This document shows positions 3,034 through 61,014 of a stretch of 64,000 bases of DNA, one piece after another. Position 1 is the stretch's first letter. The number at the start of each line of letters is the position of its first letter. Source of the stretch: a virus (lineage: Duplodnaviria > Caudoviricetes); IMG/VR virus record IMGVR_UViG_3300032050_000002; one strand, 5' to 3'. Under the pieces are notes generated by a model, which worked only from the letters and a program-made list of their open reading frames with translations, was not told where the DNA came from and did no database searches. A program made the position numbers and the translations under genes.

Positions 3034-4677
3034 ATGGAAACACTTTTTGAATATAGTAAAAGTCATTATAATGTAACATATTACAAGGATAATTGTGTAT
3101 TAAACCCACCCGATAATAAAGATGAGTTATTTGGAGTTAGTCTGTATAGACCCCCATTAAATGACCCAAGATTTCCATTATGGGATTATGATAAAAGTGA
3201 AAAGGGTGAGGAAGTTTATGTTAAAAATTATGGAAATCCTTTATGTTCCCTCAATCTTTATAGAGGAACAATAGTTATTGTCAAAAAGGAAGATAAAATA
3301 ACCATAAAGATATTTGATTATACAAGAACAAGAGGAGTTAATAAACCATATTTCAGAGTATCAACCAATGTCGAATTCTTCACATATAACTTCAAAAGAC
3401 ACATAATGTATGTTGGAGGTATTAAGAACTATCACAAAAAACGTAAATTCACTAAAAAAATTAAAATCACTAATACAGGTGAACATCCTTTAGCCGGTAT
3501 AAAATCAAAAATAAACGCATTAAACCATAGTAGTCTTTATAATGGAGAGTTTACTCACACGGACGCAATCAATTTCTCTGAAAAAGTTTTAGAGATTTTT
3601 ATAAGTAATTTACCTGGTATTGAAAAATATAAAGACATATTTCCTTTAGAACAAAGATTCTATAAATATCATTTGGAGAGTAAGGGCGTTAAGTTACCAA
3701 ATAATTGGACAACATTTATCCATACATATCCACAACCTTTGAAGAAAGTTTATGTAAAAAATGACTATAAGTATATTGATTCAATAATGGAAGTTAATAA
3801 GTTGAGCGGAACTAGAATAAGAAAAATTCTACATACCTTAGACCACTTTGACCCAAATACAATTAAGTCGGCATTTTATTATTATGGTGAAGATTATATA
3901 ATGAATCAGTCAGATGAATTCTTATATAAAATATTTAAAAGTAATATCACTAATTATAATGTTATCAAAGTAAATGAGTATATTACAAATAAACAGGATT
4001 TAAAAAATTCTTTTGAAATCTTTAAATTAGCGGTTAATGGTAATATACACGAACAAACATTTATTGACCATATTAGAATGTACTCATTCTTAAAAAGATT
4101 CGAACCAATTAAATGGGAGGCAAAAACTTATTTAGACTTTTCTGACGAACACATTCATTGGACGGAGTTACAATCTTTTTATACCAACGGAACATATGAA
4201 AGAACATACTCTGACGAGTTTAGTGAAGATAGTCAATCTAAAATTGAAATTAATAATGAGACCTATTATCCTGTTCTACTAAAAAAATCTGATGAATATA
4301 ATAAAGAATCCTTTATACAGAGTAATTGTGTTAAAGGATATATAAGTAGAGCGGCTAGTTTAATCATATCATTAAGAAAAGATGATAACGAATCTAAAGA
4401 AAGAGCTACGATTGAATATAGAATATCAGGTAATGATAAGAATGTAGAACTTAGAAGAGTGCAAACTTTAGGTAGGTTCAACAACCTTCTCCCAAAGGAG
4501 TGGGACGAACCAATAAAAATATTAGATGAAAATTTAAATAAACTTTTAAAAGAAAAAAAGTTTACATTACCAAAATTAAAAGTAACTTATAAGATGGGAG
4601 AAATTGAAACTGAAGGAATTTTTTCTGAAGAAAGTTATAATAAAGAATTAATATGGAAAGACAGGATAAACTTTTAA
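3034..4677 (+). CDS. PcfJ-like domain protein
   Basis: 547 aa; C-terminal ESFIQSNCVKGY...IISLR...RATIEY...VQTLGRFN pattern. Confidence 0.6.
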   Translation: METLFEYSKSHYNVTYYKDNCVLNPPDNKDELFGVSLYRPPLNDPRFPLWDYDKSEKGEEVYVKNYGNPLCSLNLYRGTIVIVKKEDKITIKIFDYTRTRGVNKPYFRVSTNVEFFTYNFKRHIMYVGGIKNYHKKRKFTKKIKITNTGEHPLAGIKSKINALNHSSLYNGEFTHTDAINFSEKVLEIFISNLPGIEKYKDIFPLEQRFYKYHLESKGVKLPNNWTTFIHTYPQPLKKVYVKNDYKYIDSIMEVNKLSGTRIRKILHTLDHFDPNTIKSAFYYYGEDYIMNQSDEFLYKIFKSNITNYNVIKVNEYITNKQDLKNSFEIFKLAVNGNIHEQTFIDHIRMYSFLKRFEPIKWEAKTYLDFSDEHIHWTELQSFYTNGTYERTYSDEFSEDSQSKIEINNETYYPVLLKKSDEYNKESFIQSNCVKGYISRAASLIISLRKDDNESKERATIEYRISGNDKNVELRRVQTLGRFNNLLPKEWDEPIKILDENLNKLLKEKKFTLPKLKVTYKMGEIETEGIFSEESYNKELIWKDRINF

Positions 4678-16050: not shown

Positions 16051-16394
16051 AATTCATAATAACAGAAAATAAAATACAAAAAGTTGCATTTAAATTTATG
16101 AACTCTTTATTTAGTCCAGACCAGTTGGAAATTGTTACGTCAGAAAAATATCCAGATTCAATTTTCTTTATGAAAAATGGTGTGGTTGTTATGGAACAGG
16201 ATAAAAGAAATCAAGATTTTTATTTTGATTATTATGAAATTTGGTCATTTTTTGAATTGCTTTTCGGTATGGGATTCAAACAAATACAGGATGTTATGAG
16301 ATACTGGTTGGAGGAGACTCTCAAATTAGAGGGTTATACACCATTCCAAACTGTTTCGACTCTCCAAAGTGGTTGGAGGAGACTCTCAAATTAA
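16047..16394 (+). CDS. MKFIITE-family small protein
   Basis: Paralog of 54863, 57151, 57517, 59824. Confidence 0.75.
   Translation: MKFIITENKIQKVAFKFMNSLFSPDQLEIVTSEKYPDSIFFMKNGVVVMEQDKRNQDFYFDYYEIWSFFELLFGMGFKQIQDVMRYWLEETLKLEGYTPFQTVSTLQSGWRRLSN
16305..16393 (+). repeat. Two-copy repeat-spacer unit, 65-bp period
   Basis: TGGTTGGAGGAGACTCTCAAATTA identical at 16305 and 16370. Confidence 0.85.
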
Positions 16395-16727
16395 AACCTC
16401 ATCACCCTCTCTAATATCTAATTTTCTACAAGTTTTACCCCTTAACTCAAGGATAGTTTCACCTGTGCCGCAATAGTTTTTACATTCTTCAGAAAGACAA
16501 GGTTTGCAATTATGATGTATTTTAGTAATAATATTACCCTCAATAAAAATAATATCCAAAGGTATAATACAATTCTTCATCCAAAAACAATGTTGTCCTT
16601 CATCCATTAGAAACAACATACCATTAAAGGTCTCATCAAAATCTCTACCCATCATACCCCTTTGAGTTTCTTTTGGGGTCTTCGCTATTTTTACTTTGAA
16701 CTTGTTTCCGTTAATACTTAATCTCAT
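16386..16727 (-). CDS. DUF192 family protein
   Basis: KIAKTPKETQRGMM...GMLF...FWMKNCIIPLDIIFI. Confidence 0.85.
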   Translation of the reverse strand: MRLSINGNKFKVKIAKTPKETQRGMMGRDFDETFNGMLFLMDEGQHCFWMKNCIIPLDIIFIEGNIITKIHHNCKPCLSEECKNYCGTGETILELRGKTCRKLDIREGDEVLI

Positions 16728-55634: not shown

Positions 55635-56600
55635 ATGGGAAAAGAAGACATTAATAAAATGTATTTAGGTAAAGATTATTCAAAACTTGTAAATGCGTTA
55701 TTCTCAAAGAAGTATAGTTGGTTTAAGAAAATAGATATAGATAATGTTATTTATAATAAATTAAAATATAAACCAAGTTTCTTAAATCTAAAAGGAACAA
55801 TATATGTTGATTCAGATTGGGGACACAAACAATTTAGAGAATATTATTACGATTTAGCCTTTCCCGAAGATACCGAGTTAAGTTTCGGTGATATTATGGG
55901 TGGAGATTTAAGTAAAGAAATACAAGATGATTTTAAAACAATATTCTCTTCTCTATATGGCACACAAATACCCACATATATGTCATTTACTTGGTTAATG
56001 GTAAAATTTGTTGATGAAGACAAAAGATTGGAAGAAACCATAAAAAAAGTATTAAGAAAAGAGAACAAATATAGTAAAAATATGAAATCAGATAGACCTG
56101 AAACCAATGAATCTGAATTAACCGAAAAATGTTGGCCAGGATATACCCAAAAAGGAATGAAGACAATGTTTGGAAAACGATATCCAAATTGTGTTAAGAA
56201 GAAAAAAACATTAAAAGAATGGTATGTGACAAGGGATAGAGAAAAAGAAATGGGGATGTCATACGTTAAATTTGAGGAAATAATAAATAATTTAATGGGT
56301 AAAAGATATGATTGGTGGGAAGGTATTAAAATAAAAGATATTTTATATTCTGGTTTTAGTGATGAAGTAGAAATTTATGGTGTTTTAAATGTTAATAGAA
56401 AATGGGCTAAACAACAATTAAAAAAACTTAGACCATTTTTTAAAACTAAAGATGGAGAGGGTTTGGATATAGATGATGTTTTCAACATGGAACTGATGAG
56501 AGAAATAGAAGAATATTTAACTATGTTGTTTTCAACATTAACTAATTTTAATAAAACTGAGGGAGTAAGATTAAATGCCTTACATATAAAATTTGCATGA
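55635..56600 (+). CDS. Modular protein with duplicated domain and KCWPGY...PNCVK module
   Basis: Two copies of KKYSWF/KRYDWW..IKI.D..Y; internal LEETIKKVLRKE, LTE, LKE; start reassigned. Confidence 0.75.
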   Translation: MGKEDINKMYLGKDYSKLVNALFSKKYSWFKKIDIDNVIYNKLKYKPSFLNLKGTIYVDSDWGHKQFREYYYDLAFPEDTELSFGDIMGGDLSKEIQDDFKTIFSSLYGTQIPTYMSFTWLMVKFVDEDKRLEETIKKVLRKENKYSKNMKSDRPETNESELTEKCWPGYTQKGMKTMFGKRYPNCVKKKKTLKEWYVTRDREKEMGMSYVKFEEIINNLMGKRYDWWEGIKIKDILYSGFSDEVEIYGVLNVNRKWAKQQLKKLRPFFKTKDGEGLDIDDVFNMELMREIEEYLTMLFSTLTNFNKTEGVRLNALHIKFA

Positions 56601-57148
56601 TGAACTTAGAACAAACCATAAGAAGAATATTGATGGAAGAAATTAACAGTTCTTCATTATCTCCTTACATTAAAAGAAGAGTTGATTTATCCGATGAAAA
56701 AATTAAAAAGATTTTAAAAACCGAAATTTTAACAGATAAAGACATTAATGCTGATGATGAATTTAGACTTAATAAGATAATAGATAATACAACAGGAGAG
56801 TTATTAAAATGGGTTAACCAAGAAGAATATGATGACAACTATGATTCAGTATATGAACATATAAAAAATAATTATTCTGATTTCATATTACAATACTTTA
56901 GAGAAGTTTTTAAAGATGATGAAGAAGCGAAGTTTTGTTTTATTAAACATAGTGAAAGATATGGAGGAAGAGGATTTACAGAATGTTTCGGTTCTTGGTT
57001 TGGTTTTCTAAATGGTTATGGAAGTTGGTTACCTAATGTTGATTGGAATAAAGTTAAAGAAGAATTAAAAACAAAAGATAGAATATTATTGGCAAGACCA
57101 TTAGAAGGTCATATCTATGGATATTATTTTTCGGTATTAAAGAAATGA
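56597..57148 (+). CDS. Leader-bearing hypothetical protein
   Basis: MNLEQTIRRILMEE. Confidence 0.75.
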   Translation: MMNLEQTIRRILMEEINSSSLSPYIKRRVDLSDEKIKKILKTEILTDKDINADDEFRLNKIIDNTTGELLKWVNQEEYDDNYDSVYEHIKNNYSDFILQYFREVFKDDEEAKFCFIKHSERYGGRGFTECFGSWFGFLNGYGSWLPNVDWNKVKEELKTKDRILLARPLEGHIYGYYFSVLKK

Positions 57149-57150
57149 TT

Positions 57151-57489
57151 TTAAACCCAATTATCCGGCATTTTTAACAAAGTTGCTTCAAGACCAATCC
57201 AACTATTTGTATCAACGACTTTCACATTTAATTTATTCTCAACCCAACCAGCAATTACGTTTCTGGTAACAATATATTTTGATGAAAAGAAACCATCCAT
57301 CTCAACAATCAAATCAGAATTAATATAACACATTCCCGTACCATAATCATACATTATTTGAGCAATCTCATCATCTTCTGAATTGGCAAAGTAAGCTCCG
57401 TCATAAGTATGAATACGAATAAAATCTTGATTGTCCAAATACTTTTCCATCGCGGAAACTATTTTTGATTCGGTGATAATAAATTTCAT
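57151..57489 (-). CDS. MKFIITE-family small protein
   Basis: MKFIITESK..YLDNQDF..WVENKL. Confidence 0.78.
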   Translation of the reverse strand: MKFIITESKIVSAMEKYLDNQDFIRIHTYDGAYFANSEDDEIAQIMYDYGTGMCYINSDLIVEMDGFFSSKYIVTRNVIAGWVENKLNVKVVDTNSWIGLEATLLKMPDNWV

Positions 57490-57516
57490 ATAGTATAAAT
57501 ATATAAACTAATCAAA

Positions 57517-57816
57517 TTAGAATGAAAATATGCCGTAACCAACAACAGGAACATTTAACTTATTTGACACCCATTTAGCAATAATATCACCGGCGGTTAC
57601 CTTCTCAATAGAGAAAAAATCAATTAATTCATCAACTAAGTCTTTTTTAAAATAACACATTTCACTTACATTTGAATAACCGATGAGTCCATCCACATCA
57701 TCCTCAGAATTTAAAAAACGAACTGTATTTTTATAACCCTTCACAATAAAGTCCTGATTATCCAAATACTTAAAGATAATGTTTTCCAATTTTGATTCGG
57801 TGATAATAAATTTCAT
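57517..57816 (-). CDS. MKFIITE-family small protein
   Basis: MKFIITESKL..YLDNQDF. Confidence 0.78.
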   Translation of the reverse strand: MKFIITESKLENIIFKYLDNQDFIVKGYKNTVRFLNSEDDVDGLIGYSNVSEMCYFKKDLVDELIDFFSIEKVTAGDIIAKWVSNKLNVPVVGYGIFSF

Positions 57817-57843
57817 AATCATAAATATACGATATTTATTAAT

Positions 57844-58689
57844 ATGCGACTTAAAGAAACTATGATAAAAAGATTATTTAATCTTTATGATGATATATTT
57901 AAGAAATTAAAGTTAGAAATTTATACCGATGAATCGGGAACCATATATGGAAAATGGTTTGATAAAAATGAAAAATTAATTTTCAGTAGAAATCATTTTG
58001 GAACATTATGGGTCGATGACTGCGACTCATATACCACACTATGGATTTATTCAAAGGCATTATCCCTAAATAAAGAAGAGTTTGAATTATCTTTAATAGA
58101 TTATTTGAATCTAAAATATCAAAACCAATCAAAAAATAGACCAATAAAAAGTATTGGTGATGAAAATCATTGTTTGGAGGATATGGAAGATGAAACCGAA
58201 AATTTGCAAGAATCCATAAGAAGAATATTAAGGGAAGAAACGGATTTTTATTATAATCTAAAGACGGTTGCGTTTGAAGAACTACCATTTGAATATCAGA
58301 GGTCATTAATAATTTATATGTATGAAGGACCCGTTGTTGATTGGTCATTAGACCTGGATAGGGACATTGTTTCAAAGAATGATGAACTTGTTAAGGTTCT
58401 AATAAATGATTATATGTCGGTAGGTAGAAATAAGAACAAATCATTTGCTTATGGTATAGTTCCAATGAAAACTCTAACAAAAGAAATTGCCGAGAGAATG
58501 GGATATGATAACTACAATGATTATCATAAAGATTATGTAGGTTCAAATTATGTTCAAAAACATAAAGAGTCGGTATGGCCAATTATTCTAAATCCTGACA
58601 ATGATGAATTAATAGAAGATGGTTGGCATAGATTCCACGATTATTATAGTAGGGGATTAAAGAAAGTTCCAGTGGTTATGTTTATGTAG
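57844..58689 (+). CDS. Two-module protein with C-terminal ParB/Srx-like domain
   Basis: Internal LQESIRRILREE; WPIIL...IEDGWHRF...VPV. Confidence 0.6.
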   Translation: MRLKETMIKRLFNLYDDIFKKLKLEIYTDESGTIYGKWFDKNEKLIFSRNHFGTLWVDDCDSYTTLWIYSKALSLNKEEFELSLIDYLNLKYQNQSKNRPIKSIGDENHCLEDMEDETENLQESIRRILREETDFYYNLKTVAFEELPFEYQRSLIIYMYEGPVVDWSLDLDRDIVSKNDELVKVLINDYMSVGRNKNKSFAYGIVPMKTLTKEIAERMGYDNYNDYHKDYVGSNYVQKHKESVWPIILNPDNDELIEDGWHRFHDYYSRGLKKVPVVMFM

Positions 58690-58708
58690 AAATTACAAAC
58701 TAATCATA

Positions 58709-59074
58709 TTAGTTTAAGTCCCAACATATTTCTGTAAGGTATTTGTCAGTTCCGTTTACTTTAGAAACTTCTTCTTTGTGTTTAGTTATAAATTCTTCAT
58801 TATAATTTCCCAAAACACCTTGGTCCCAATGATTTAATTTTGCAATACGAATAAACTTTCCATATTCTTTTTCGGTCAATCTACCCTTCAAAGGTATTAC
58901 ACTTCCAACACAAGTATTCCACTTTGTTTTTCTACCATTATATGTTACATAGTAATAATCTTGCTCATCATCACCAATAGCAATTAACCTTTCTATATCC
59001 CAAGATTCAGTTATTACAAATTGACCTTTAAGTTCTTCAAATTCTGATAATATTTTTTGTAAGTTACTATCCAT
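58709..59074 (-). CDS. Hypothetical protein
   Basis: ORF track. Confidence 0.72.
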   Translation of the reverse strand: MDSNLQKILSEFEELKGQFVITESWDIERLIAIGDDEQDYYYVTYNGRKTKWNTCVGSVIPLKGRLTEKEYGKFIRIAKLNHWDQGVLGNYNEEFITKHKEEVSKVNGTDKYLTEICWDLN

Positions 59075-59075
59075 A

Positions 59076-59732
59076 TTATTTTATTGTATGATTTAATACC
59101 TTGTCAACATAACTTTCTTCATCAATCATTTCGCCACCATCCATATTAGTTACCGTATGATTTAATATATCTTCCACCTCAGATTTAAATTGGTGAAGAT
59201 GGTCATTAGCAGTACCAGGAGTACATTTCAATATCTCTCCCATCCACTTATCCAAACTTGATGCGGTTTTATCAACCTTACAATTTAATACTTCTTCCAC
59301 CAATTCAGGAGCGTAATAAACACCACCATCTGTTGCATTAACCTTACAATTTAATACCTCTTCCACCTCTTCATTCATAAAAAAGACAACACGTACGGTT
59401 GTATTAACCTTACAATTTAATACCTCTTCCACCCGGTTATAAATGGTGATGGCACCAACAGCAGTTGTATTAACCTTACAATTTAATACCTCTTCCACCC
59501 AATCTTTTAAAATGGGCTCAAATCGAGCGGAGTCAAGAGAAAATAATAAGAAAAAATCATTAAAGAAACTATATCTCCACCACAATCTACCATCTTTTTG
59601 TAGTTCAAAATACCAGTACTTCTTTTGTCTGTCAATAAACCATATATTACCATTATAGTTGATAATCTCAGTCTTCCCAAGTTCTCTATATAGTTCATCA
59701 AAGACAATCTTTTTTAATTTATCTGAAATCAT
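59076..59732 (-). CDS. MISDKL-family protein with 22-aa constant/variable repeats
   Basis: (VEEVLNCKVNxT + 10 variable aa) x3-4; ATG 4 nt after TATCTTTG. Confidence 0.8.
   Translation of the reverse strand: MISDKLKKIVFDELYRELGKTEIINYNGNIWFIDRQKKYWYFELQKDGRLWWRYSFFNDFFLLFSLDSARFEPILKDWVEEVLNCKVNTTAVGAITIYNRVEEVLNCKVNTTVRVVFFMNEEVEEVLNCKVNATDGGVYYAPELVEEVLNCKVDKTASSLDKWMGEILKCTPGTANDHLHQFKSEVEDILNHTVTNMDGGEMIDEESYVDKVLNHTIK
59266..59499. repeat. CRISPR-like array: four 36-bp repeats, three 30-bp unrelated spacers
   Basis: GTTGTATTAACCTTACAATTTAATACCTCTTCCACC at 59464, 59398, 59332 (1 mismatch), 59266 (3 mismatches); internal GTATTAA/TTAATAC palindrome. Confidence 0.85.
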
Positions 59733-59769
59733 AATACAAAGATAATAATAAAAAATGGATTAGACAAAT

Positions 59770-59920
59770 TTAATTAGGTATTCTCAATTTATTAAAAATA
59801 AGTGGTCTTCTTACTTGTTGTGTCTAACACCTTGATTTGCGAGGTATTCCCGACAAAGGCTTAATCTTACCAAAACAAAATACTGCGTCTAACACCTTAA
59901 TTTGTAAGGTATTCTCAACC
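59770..59920. repeat. Decayed repeat-spacer array, periods 65 and 66 bp
   Basis: 59885-59920 vs 59820-59855 (29/36 identical); third partial copy AGGTATTCTCAA at 59776. Confidence 0.75.
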
Positions 59921-60165
59921 CACTTACCGATAAGGTTTTTAGAATCAAGATACTCTAAAGAAAAAAAAGAAGAAATTTCGTCCACCAAATCAACATTAAA
60001 ATAACACTTACCAACATTTTTATCGTATTTAATTTGAAAAAACTCATCTTCTATCGAATTAAAAAAATAAATATAAACCCCCTTTTCAACCTTAACAAAG
60101 TCCTGATTATCCAAGTACTTAAAGATTACTTGTTCCATTTTAGATTCGGTGATAATGAATTTCAT
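59824..60165 (-). CDS. MKFIITE-family small protein
   Basis: MKFIITESKM..YLDNQDF..WVENTLQIKV. Confidence 0.78.
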   Translation of the reverse strand: MKFIITESKMEQVIFKYLDNQDFVKVEKGVYIYFFNSIEDEFFQIKYDKNVGKCYFNVDLVDEISSFFSLEYLDSKNLIGKWVENTLQIKVLDAVFCFGKIKPLSGIPRKSRC

Positions 60166-60177
60166 ATAAGATAAATA

Positions 60178-60555
60178 TTAGTAGATGTGTTCATTATCAT
60201 AAAATGTCATTATTTCGTTAGTTTTAATATTCATATGTTTTTCAAACCATTTTAATAAATGACTTTGTATTTCTTCCCAAGTTTTCATGCTAAACAAATT
60301 AAATATATAACCGTAAAAATCATCGGCCAAATAAACTTCTGAATTGCCAAAAGCAATACGTGATTTAGAGCCCTTATATTCTTTATTTAAAGTTAATATA
60401 ATAATAACTTCATTATCGTTATCATCATACCAAACATCTCTATGATACAACCCATTAGGATTAGGAACTCTTTTATGTTTTAATCCCAAAAATAGTTCGC
60501 CAATAAAAGAATCAATTATATTATCTAATTTAGATTCGGTGATAATGAATTTCAT
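60178..60555 (-). CDS. ITE-leader small protein
   Basis: MKFIITESKL; LKWFE. Confidence 0.75.
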   Translation of the reverse strand: MKFIITESKLDNIIDSFIGELFLGLKHKRVPNPNGLYHRDVWYDDNDNEVIIILTLNKEYKGSKSRIAFGNSEVYLADDFYGYIFNLFSMKTWEEIQSHLLKWFEKHMNIKTNEIMTFYDNEHIY

Positions 60556-60591
60556 ATAGTAATAAATATGAAGATAATAAGAAATTATGAA

Positions 60592-60765
60592 CTACTTCTT
60601 AATCACCTTAATATCAGAGACATTTCTTGTTTCTTTAAGATACTTTTTGGCGTCTTTAATGGAGTTATGTAACTTATAGGGGAGTCTAGGTATTAAACCT
60701 GATTTTTCTGTATATACGTGTATGTAGTTATTACAAGGAAAAGTTATAACGGTTGTTTTTTTCAT
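60592..60765 (-). CDS. 57-aa hypothetical protein (not in ORF track)
   Basis: ATG 4 nt after TATATTTG; translated by hand. Confidence 0.55.
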   Translation of the reverse strand: MKKTTVITFPCNNYIHVYTEKSGLIPRLPYKLHNSIKDAKKYLKETRNVSDIKVIKK

Positions 60766-60785
60766 AATACAAATATAAGAATAAA

Positions 60786-60977
60786 TTAATCAAAAATGTA
60801 ATCCCCATCAATTAGTCTTTTAATCTTTTCCAACCATTGTGATGAGTGGGAAATATAACTATTAAATTTCTCTATCTCATCAAAAGAATATAATGATTTG
60901 TCTCTATTCTGATTATACTCAATATAACTTTCGAGTTTGGTTTTCTCCTGTTCGTAAAACTTTTCTAAATTATCCAT
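60786..60977 (-). CDS. Hypothetical protein
   Basis: ATG 4 nt after TATCTTTG. Confidence 0.7.
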   Translation of the reverse strand: MDNLEKFYEQEKTKLESYIEYNQNRDKSLYSFDEIEKFNSYISHSSQWLEKIKRLIDGDYIFD

Positions 60978-61014
60978 AATACAAAGATAATAATAAATTA
61001 TGAACTAAACAAAC

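Follow-up and report, generated by a model that had tools for sequence, protein, structure and literature searches.

How can the end of a phage protein gene come to carry evenly spaced DNA repeats that leave the reading frame and continue past the stop codon? This question is raised by gene 59824-60165 in a 64,000-nucleotide stretch of phage DNA (the window), cut at bases 32001-96000 from a 107-kb IMG/VR record; this record has 29-31% GC and a CheckV completeness of 37%. Relatives of the phage are 200-330-kb phages from lake metagenomes; among GenBank phages, protein and sensitive DNA searches retrieved neither relatives nor spacer targets. Around the array, small paralogous genes follow one another, many with an MKFIITESK start, and the gene itself has eight paralogs in the record and homologs in IMG/VR. 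Searches of nine neighbouring proteins against Pfam and PHROGs gave only noise-level matches, and no CRISPR repeat family of Rfam matched positions 56500-61000 at a permissive threshold.

A preliminary description of the locus had pointed out that the segment encoding WVENTL recurs 65 nt further on and, in part, 131 nt further on, that spacers of 29 and 30 nt lie in between, that the 65-bp step shifts the frame and that the third copy is non-coding. All of this could be located precisely (Table 1). Copy 1, the gene-proximal and best-preserved copy, starts at the V codon and shares 27/36 positions with the consensus of the array family to which it belongs, here termed F1. The differences between copies 1 and 2 number six, all of them transitions, and both copies have an array-specific 3' half in common (AAGGTGTTAGAC, with the variant GGTGTTAGAC). 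By our estimate, such an identity within 100 nt is expected by chance about 3e-4 times per 64 kb. The gene product ends in ...IGKWVENTLQIKVLDAVFCFGKIKPLSGIPRKSRC, as copy 2 is read out of the frame of copy 1 (SGIPRKSRC) and contains the TAG stop at 59824-59826. Copy 3, beyond this stop, shares the frame of the real ORF and would give KLRIPN*, the usual C-terminus of the homologs. The two spacers are unrelated to each other, and a source for either was found neither in the record nor in the fetched loci. Programmed -1 frameshifting as a means of reading copy 2 was considered and rejected: no slippery site was seen, and the stub of the homologs brings a stop in either frame. Past the stub, the upstream region of gene 59076-59732 directly adjoins. 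Right behind the stub it contains TAAATTTG at 59765-59772 on the minus strand, 33 nt upstream of the start of that gene, a putative promoter element that fits TAnnTTTG, which we take to be the -7 box of Bacteroidota promoters.

Table 1. Features of the array and of the two genes concerned, in window coordinates.
Feature	Position	Strand	Remarks
Gene of the MKFIITESK...WVENTL family, 113 aa	59824..60165	-	ORF; last 32 codons within the array
Repeat copy 1, 36 nt	59884..59919	-	GTTGAGAATACCTTACAAATTAAGGTGTTAGACGCA; encoded peptide VENTLQIKVLDA
Spacer 1, 29 nt	59855..59883	-	Reads VFCFGKIKPL
Repeat copy 2, 36 nt	59819..59854	-	65 nt past copy 1; 30/36 identity to copy 1
Spacer 2, 30 nt	59789..59818	-	Downstream of the stop codon
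Copy 3, terminal stub, 13 nt	59776..59788	-	ATTGAGAATACCT; 66 nt past copy 2; non-coding
Neighbouring gene with F2 array	59076..59732	-	Four well-preserved repeats at 59301-59499, further ones decayed; 66-nt steps; translated

The periodicity of 65/66 bp for which the preliminary description had proposed to examine homologs was borne out by a pattern scan of IMG/VR, in which any distance of 52-82 nt was allowed for a second copy and arrays were de-duplicated. Related second copies lay 65, 66 or 67 nt away only, the few candidates at 60 and 62 nt being unrelated. The scan yielded 37 F1 arrays with steps of 65, 66 and 67 nt in 19, 13 and 12 cases, so that 31 of the 44 units break the frame. When all WVE-type motifs with a second copy are taken, the same three steps account for 12, 48 and 10 cases, and there are zero elsewhere within 55-80 nt. 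Spacer lengths tabulated over the homologs showed a correspondingly narrow distribution. As in CRISPR arrays, repeats of fixed length (36 nt) alternate with unique spacers of nearly constant length (29-31 nt in the 37 F1 arrays). Most F1 arrays consist of one full repeat plus a stub and hold one or two spacers; three copies occur in four arrays and five in one. Almost all are closed by a 12-13-nt stub just before the ATATTTAT-type motif of the next gene, with a break point at a constant base that adjoins the promoter-like module of that gene. Identity to the consensus drops with distance from the gene (34, 35, 33, 30 and 23 positions in L016; 27, 25 and 15 in array 59776-59919). The polarity of a CRISPR array is thereby present, in F1 taken alone as this decay gradient only.

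Several features of the F1 family indicate that it is DNA, and not peptide, that is repeated. Homologs retrieved by protein search end in WVENTLQMKVTNT, about ten residues and then LRIPN*, and their LRIP and VENT are written by one DNA word, GTTGAGAATACC, which occurs 65 nt apart in different frames. The downstream word co-varies with copy 1 within each gene, as with GTTGATAATACCC in both copies of L010, and private variants common to the copies of one array were seen in L023, L010 and array 59776-59919. Family members with an AT-rich-codon version of the motif (WVENTLDRRV...) never have a second copy. Most direct is the comparison of two relatives, L026 and L044, whose upstream flanks are 92% identical and whose sequences past the stub are identical, with unrelated spacers of 29 and 31 nt in between. 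In-frame stops in the first F1 spacers are mildly depleted (6 of 36 spacers, compared with 17 and 14 in the remaining frames). Because most steps are not multiples of three, unrelated spacers separate conserved repeats and spacers are swapped between L026 and L044, F1 does not result from protein-repeat selection. Insertion into these genes took place on DNA, regardless of reading frame, as the preliminary description had supposed when it proposed duplication of about 36 bp together with insertion of about 30 bp.

An AF2 model of the product of gene 59824-60165, built on 44 homologs (pLDDT 84), comprises a helix, four strands and two helices, with WVENTL closing the last helix and a disordered tail encoded by the spacer. 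Frame-breaking insertions would be tolerated because, according to this model, the array alters only a floppy C-terminal tail. A Foldseek search of the model against the PDB gave no match at E <= 0.001, and the best Z of 4.5 obtained with VIA-align over 48,161 chains is uninformative.

The structured insertion site that had been suggested proved to be a feature of individual copies. Copy 1 can indeed form the hairpin AATACCTTA/TAAGGTGTT (-9.1 kcal/mol), but its conservation across the family is absent: over 39 repeat variants, 75% of cells pair and covariation stays within the range of shuffled sequences. A third type of repeat was observed at the end of another paralog, at 16307-16407 on the plus strand (GTTGGAGGAGACTCTCAAATTAGAGGGTTATACACC); its second copy lies 65 nt on and is degenerate at the 3' end, and the antisense of this repeat type matches a real type VI-B repeat at 23/36 positions.

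The neighbouring gene 59076-59732 carries an array of a sister family, F2, whose repeat (GGTGGAAGAGGTATTAAAT..ACAAC) recurs in 54 arrays elsewhere in two to nine copies. Here 209 of 215 steps measure 66 nt and the remainder 63 or 72 nt, each divisible by three. In-frame stops are absent from all 150 spacers, of which 37 and 87 have a stop in the other two frames, from which it follows that F2 arrays are translated and that only in-frame, stop-free insertions survive, although the spacer-encoded peptides are near random in composition. The earlier view that no protein-repeat selection is involved thus holds for F1 with its frame-breaking steps and fails for F2, where translation is clearly selected. 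The repeat codons end in GC despite the AT-rich genome (ACC 0.71-0.97, AAG 0.72, AAC 0.74). Orthologous F2 arrays of related phages have their 3' spacers in common and differ at the gene-proximal (5') end, with some internal losses. One contig from another lake lacks exactly two gene-proximal units of the array in gene 59076-59732 (132 nt, 59368-59534), and another shows an in-frame loss of 192 nt of old units (59091-59282). F1 and F2 contrast in strand and in frame use, the out-of-frame F1 serving as a control which shows that the process is DNA-level and protein-blind, and the in-frame F2 as the outcome of selection. Together they establish that DNA-level insertion and protein-level filtering coexist.

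Array 59776-59919, by comparison, looks like an old, stable and fossil-like array that is no longer growing. This view is based on a repeat divergence of 17%, on spacers as AT-rich as the phage (31% and 27% GC) and on its constant length in three contigs from other metagenome runs (dated 2023-2025). These contigs differ by three substitutions only, 3/3 in spacers and 0 in repeats. In one contig, a junction 59787>59893 was noted; its one side spans 24 nt and unknown letters lie between, and it was treated as a paralog artefact. A search for RNA runs containing the stretch retrieved none, and one raw-read run (X21) gave no reads that aligned with it.

Where do the spacers come from? Their GC content is 0.40, against 0.315 for the loci. 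A foreign origin could be traced for the F2 neighbour array. The newest spacer of the array in gene 59076-59732 (59434-59463) matches at 30/30 positions a lake-metagenome contig of 27% GC (L107, Ga0315906_10085618), at 3095-3124 within an epimerase/dehydratase gene. The gene context, with a Wzx-type flippase and two methyltransferases (TylF-type), is that of a bacterial-type polysaccharide cluster, and the spacer, read in the sense of the phage gene, is antisense to the epimerase mRNA. None of the F1 spacers tried gave such a match: two newest ones match only themselves in IMG/VR, and one was unmatched in the metagenome collection. When 11 kb of a related phage, a stretch rich in arrays, were compared with 401 Bacteroidia genomes, the only hits were chance matches of low complexity (L118-L120) and a single host-like gene. 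Two unpublished genomes (G101 and G187) figure solely among these chance hits, and nothing concluded here depends on them. A gene of a related phage (L072, 8434-9181) has 67-74% nucleotide identity to many Bacteroidia genomes and is probably host-derived.

The dimensions of the arrays are those of type VI-B (Cas13b) CRISPR arrays. The VI-B repeat of F. columnare has 36 nt and its spacers 30 nt (PMC5395568), and the type is recognised by 36-nt repeats with GUUG...CAAC ends and a loop rich in U, its crRNA consisting of the 30-nt spacer with the 36-nt repeat behind it (bioRxiv 10.1101/092577). Real arrays adjoining cas13b (NF038190) were taken from four genomes (L098, L099, L102 and L104); they have 36-nt repeats and steps of 65, 66 and 67 nt in 7, 26 and 3 cases, and the arrays of F. 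columnare and F. covae close with a repeat whose 3' end is degenerate. F1 uses the 66-nt step less often than these arrays do (p = 7e-4), so that F1 is shaped either by selection or by a mechanism of lower precision. Three real VI-B repeats were then slid over all 214,000 36-mers of the phage record. The top of this ranking is held by F2 copies, in exact register and in gene sense, with 27/36 to the G158 repeat, where the background does not exceed 23. In antisense and in exact register, copy 1 shares 22/36 positions with the VI-B repeat of F. columnare (rank about 7th), as compared with 16-18/36 in sense; over the F1 variants, the values are 21-25/36 and 16-22/36, respectively. Because the repeats are near-palindromes, this antisense match does not assign to F1 the strand, if any, that a Cas protein would read, and decay in F1 follows the gene strand even though the likeness to VI-B repeats is better on the opposite one. 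The ends run from GTTG...CGCA in copy 1 and GTCG...CACA in copy 2 to GTTG...CACC in the F1 consensus, GTTG...CAAC in the L075 variant and GGTG...CAAC in F2. A central stem is present in copy 1, with a loop that reads CAAAT in gene sense (antisense, ATTTG).

The F1 repeat occurred in none of 185,579 bacterial species representatives, and a pattern fitting both F2 and F. columnare-type repeats matched only true Flavobacterium arrays, which argues for growth of the arrays in the phage lineage itself and against copying from a host array. In place of an AT-rich non-coding leader and nearby cas genes, the gene body occupies the leader position. Five related phage records, of which three are complete, yielded no Cas1, Cas2 or Cas13b, and a slightly different set of five records, which includes the present one, no reverse transcriptase. 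Among genomes sampled from the class and from the genus of F. columnare, Cas13b was detected in 2 of 401 and in 3 of 401, respectively.

We consider it rather likely that these arrays arose by insertion of the CRISPR-adaptation type, probably catalysed by a host integrase, into repeat-like gene ends. A spacer-integration reaction would have acted twice at the end of gene 59824-60165, each event duplicating the resident 36-bp repeat and adding 29-31 bp of DNA beside the gene body. The target would be a gene end related in sequence to the 36-nt type VI-B repeats of Bacteroidota, and the enzyme, as we infer, most likely a host Cas1-Cas2 complex acting in trans on phage DNA. Blindness of this reaction to the reading frame would account for steps of 65 and 67 nt being as common as 66; these steps would change or shorten the disordered C-terminal tail, which the gene family tolerates. 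Against this reading stand the failure to trace any F1 spacer tried, the moderate likeness of F1 to VI-B repeats on the strand opposite to the gene, the rarity of Cas13b in the genomes sampled, the absence of the F1 repeat from the bacterial representatives, the less frequent use of 66-nt steps and the fixed break point of the stub. To our knowledge, no host integrase has ever been demonstrated to insert spacers into the genome of a phage. The VI-B arrays of F. columnare gain spacers through a II-C Cas1 in trans, despite differing leaders and repeats (PMC8092290), and off-target Cas1-Cas2 integration elsewhere in the genome was detected in E. coli, according to the article in which that work is cited (Nivala et al., 2018, cited in PMC7054753). 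With these two precedents and with neither cas genes nor a reverse transcriptase found in the phage records, a host adaptation complex appears to be the most economical reading.

The arrays could also be viewed as counter-defence, with repeat-mimicking transcripts that soak up host Cas13b as an RNA anti-CRISPR or load it with guides chosen by the phage. We hold this to be unlikely; it concerns the purpose of the arrays and not their origin, and insertion by Cas1-Cas2 may be compatible with it. F2 repeats in gene sense have the sense of real VI-B repeats, so that the mRNA would carry them, whereas the likeness of F1 is confined to the antisense strand and its stub cannot supply the full 3' repeat for its spacer. 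The traced F2 spacer, being antisense to a bacterial mRNA, has the orientation of an RNA-targeting guide, but Cas13b is rare in the genomes sampled and its activation would damage the phage. GC-ending repeat codons suggest a constraint at the nucleic-acid level, and phage repeat mimics are a known strategy, although the viral survey in question detected no type VI repeat units (PMC10651486). Moreover, identity to real repeats amounts to 61-75% here, while known viral mini-arrays are host-identical (PMC11656645).

Less probable still, and in our opinion distinctly improbable, is a recombination system encoded by the phage that makes or swaps the units, with the repeat as recombination site and a CRISPR likeness that is convergent or ancestral. 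The exchange of whole spacers between otherwise identical loci and the failure to find cas genes in the phages would agree with such a system, as would the fixed end of the stub; its constant break point beside the next promoter-like module could be a cassette junction left by a phage recombinase. Against it, the insert traced to a bacterial-type gene is precisely as long as a spacer, the F2 repeats match Cas13b repeats, in register, better than anything else in the record, and the hairpin is unconserved. Duplication of a 36-bp site together with a gain of 29-31 bp is not known to us from any site-specific recombinase. The idea that slippage or unequal crossing-over produced ordinary protein tandem repeats, whose motif is maintained by protein-level selection, can be virtually dismissed: W-V-E-x-x-L-x-x-K-V is a real protein feature that closes the last helix of a confident model and is present in paralogs without a second copy, and F2 arrays are translated, but the 65- and 67-nt steps of F1 do not keep a triplet period, spacers are dissimilar while repeats are 83-100% identical, synonymous sites included, F2 spacer peptides are near random in composition, and members with the AT-rich-codon motif lack a second copy throughout.

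With insertion by a CRISPR-type integrase as the preferred reading, what would the arrays mean for the phage? Spacer uptake is known as bacterial memory on non-coding arrays, and here a reaction of the same kind appears to have been repeated on phage protein genes. If the integrase comes from the host, phages are edited by the immunity that is meant to stop them and may exploit it; if the enzyme is their own, it would be a new integrase with a CRISPR-like ruler. One may tentatively conceive, with more doubt than confidence, that freshwater jumbo phages keep repeat-like gene ends so that an integrase inserts foreign DNA there in random pieces of 29-31 nt, as a built-in diversity generator that yields in-frame 10-residue cassettes in F2 and ever-changing C-terminal tails in F1, and whose repeat mRNAs might engage host Cas13b. 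A term-based literature search retrieved no description of phage ORFs with fused repeat-spacer arrays, be it of the F1 or the F2 kind.

Among known systems, CRISPR arrays of huge phages offer one comparison. In 2020, Al-Shayeb and co-workers reportedly described huge phages with arrays but without cas1 or cas2, and the likeness lies in large phages (200-330 kb in our case) with arrays that lack adaptation genes. Huge-phage arrays are reportedly intergenic, with repeats that match a Cas effector of the phage or host; those described here are fused to ORFs. The off-target events in the 2018 work of Nivala and colleagues are reported to duplicate a repeat-length target and to add one spacer at a non-CRISPR site. 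Judged by its citing article, integration likewise takes place elsewhere in the genome there. The study reportedly used E. coli that overproduces Cas1-Cas2, with its own chromosome as the target, whereas here a natural phage genome, a recurrent motif, many genes and long-lived products are concerned.

Viral mini-arrays and solitary repeat units are likewise phage-borne, devoid of cas genes and furnished with one or two spacers, and they are thought to exploit or block the host system (PMC11656645, PMC10651486). Solitary repeat units are small non-coding RNAs, often just downstream of a promoter, whereas the F1 repeat lies inside an ORF; known mini-arrays have host-identical repeats and spacers mostly against related viruses, whereas the arrays here are coding and diverged, with two F1 spacers that have no viral match.

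The closest resemblance is to the VI-B arrays of Bacteroidota, such as CRISPR-2 of F. columnare (L098) and the array of L102. The present arrays depart from these in being embedded in phage protein genes, whose body takes the place expected for the leader, and no cas genes were found in the phage records; F1 repeats share 16-25/36 positions with them, more in antisense, and mostly flank one or two spacers, and F2 is translated. In common with VI-B arrays, they have 36-nt repeats, 29-31-nt spacers and steps of 65, 66 and 67 nt, a degenerate last repeat, growth at one end, in some of the repeats a GTTG or GGTG start and CAAC-like ends, in copy 1 a central stem and, in the neighbouring F2 array, a spacer copied from foreign DNA.
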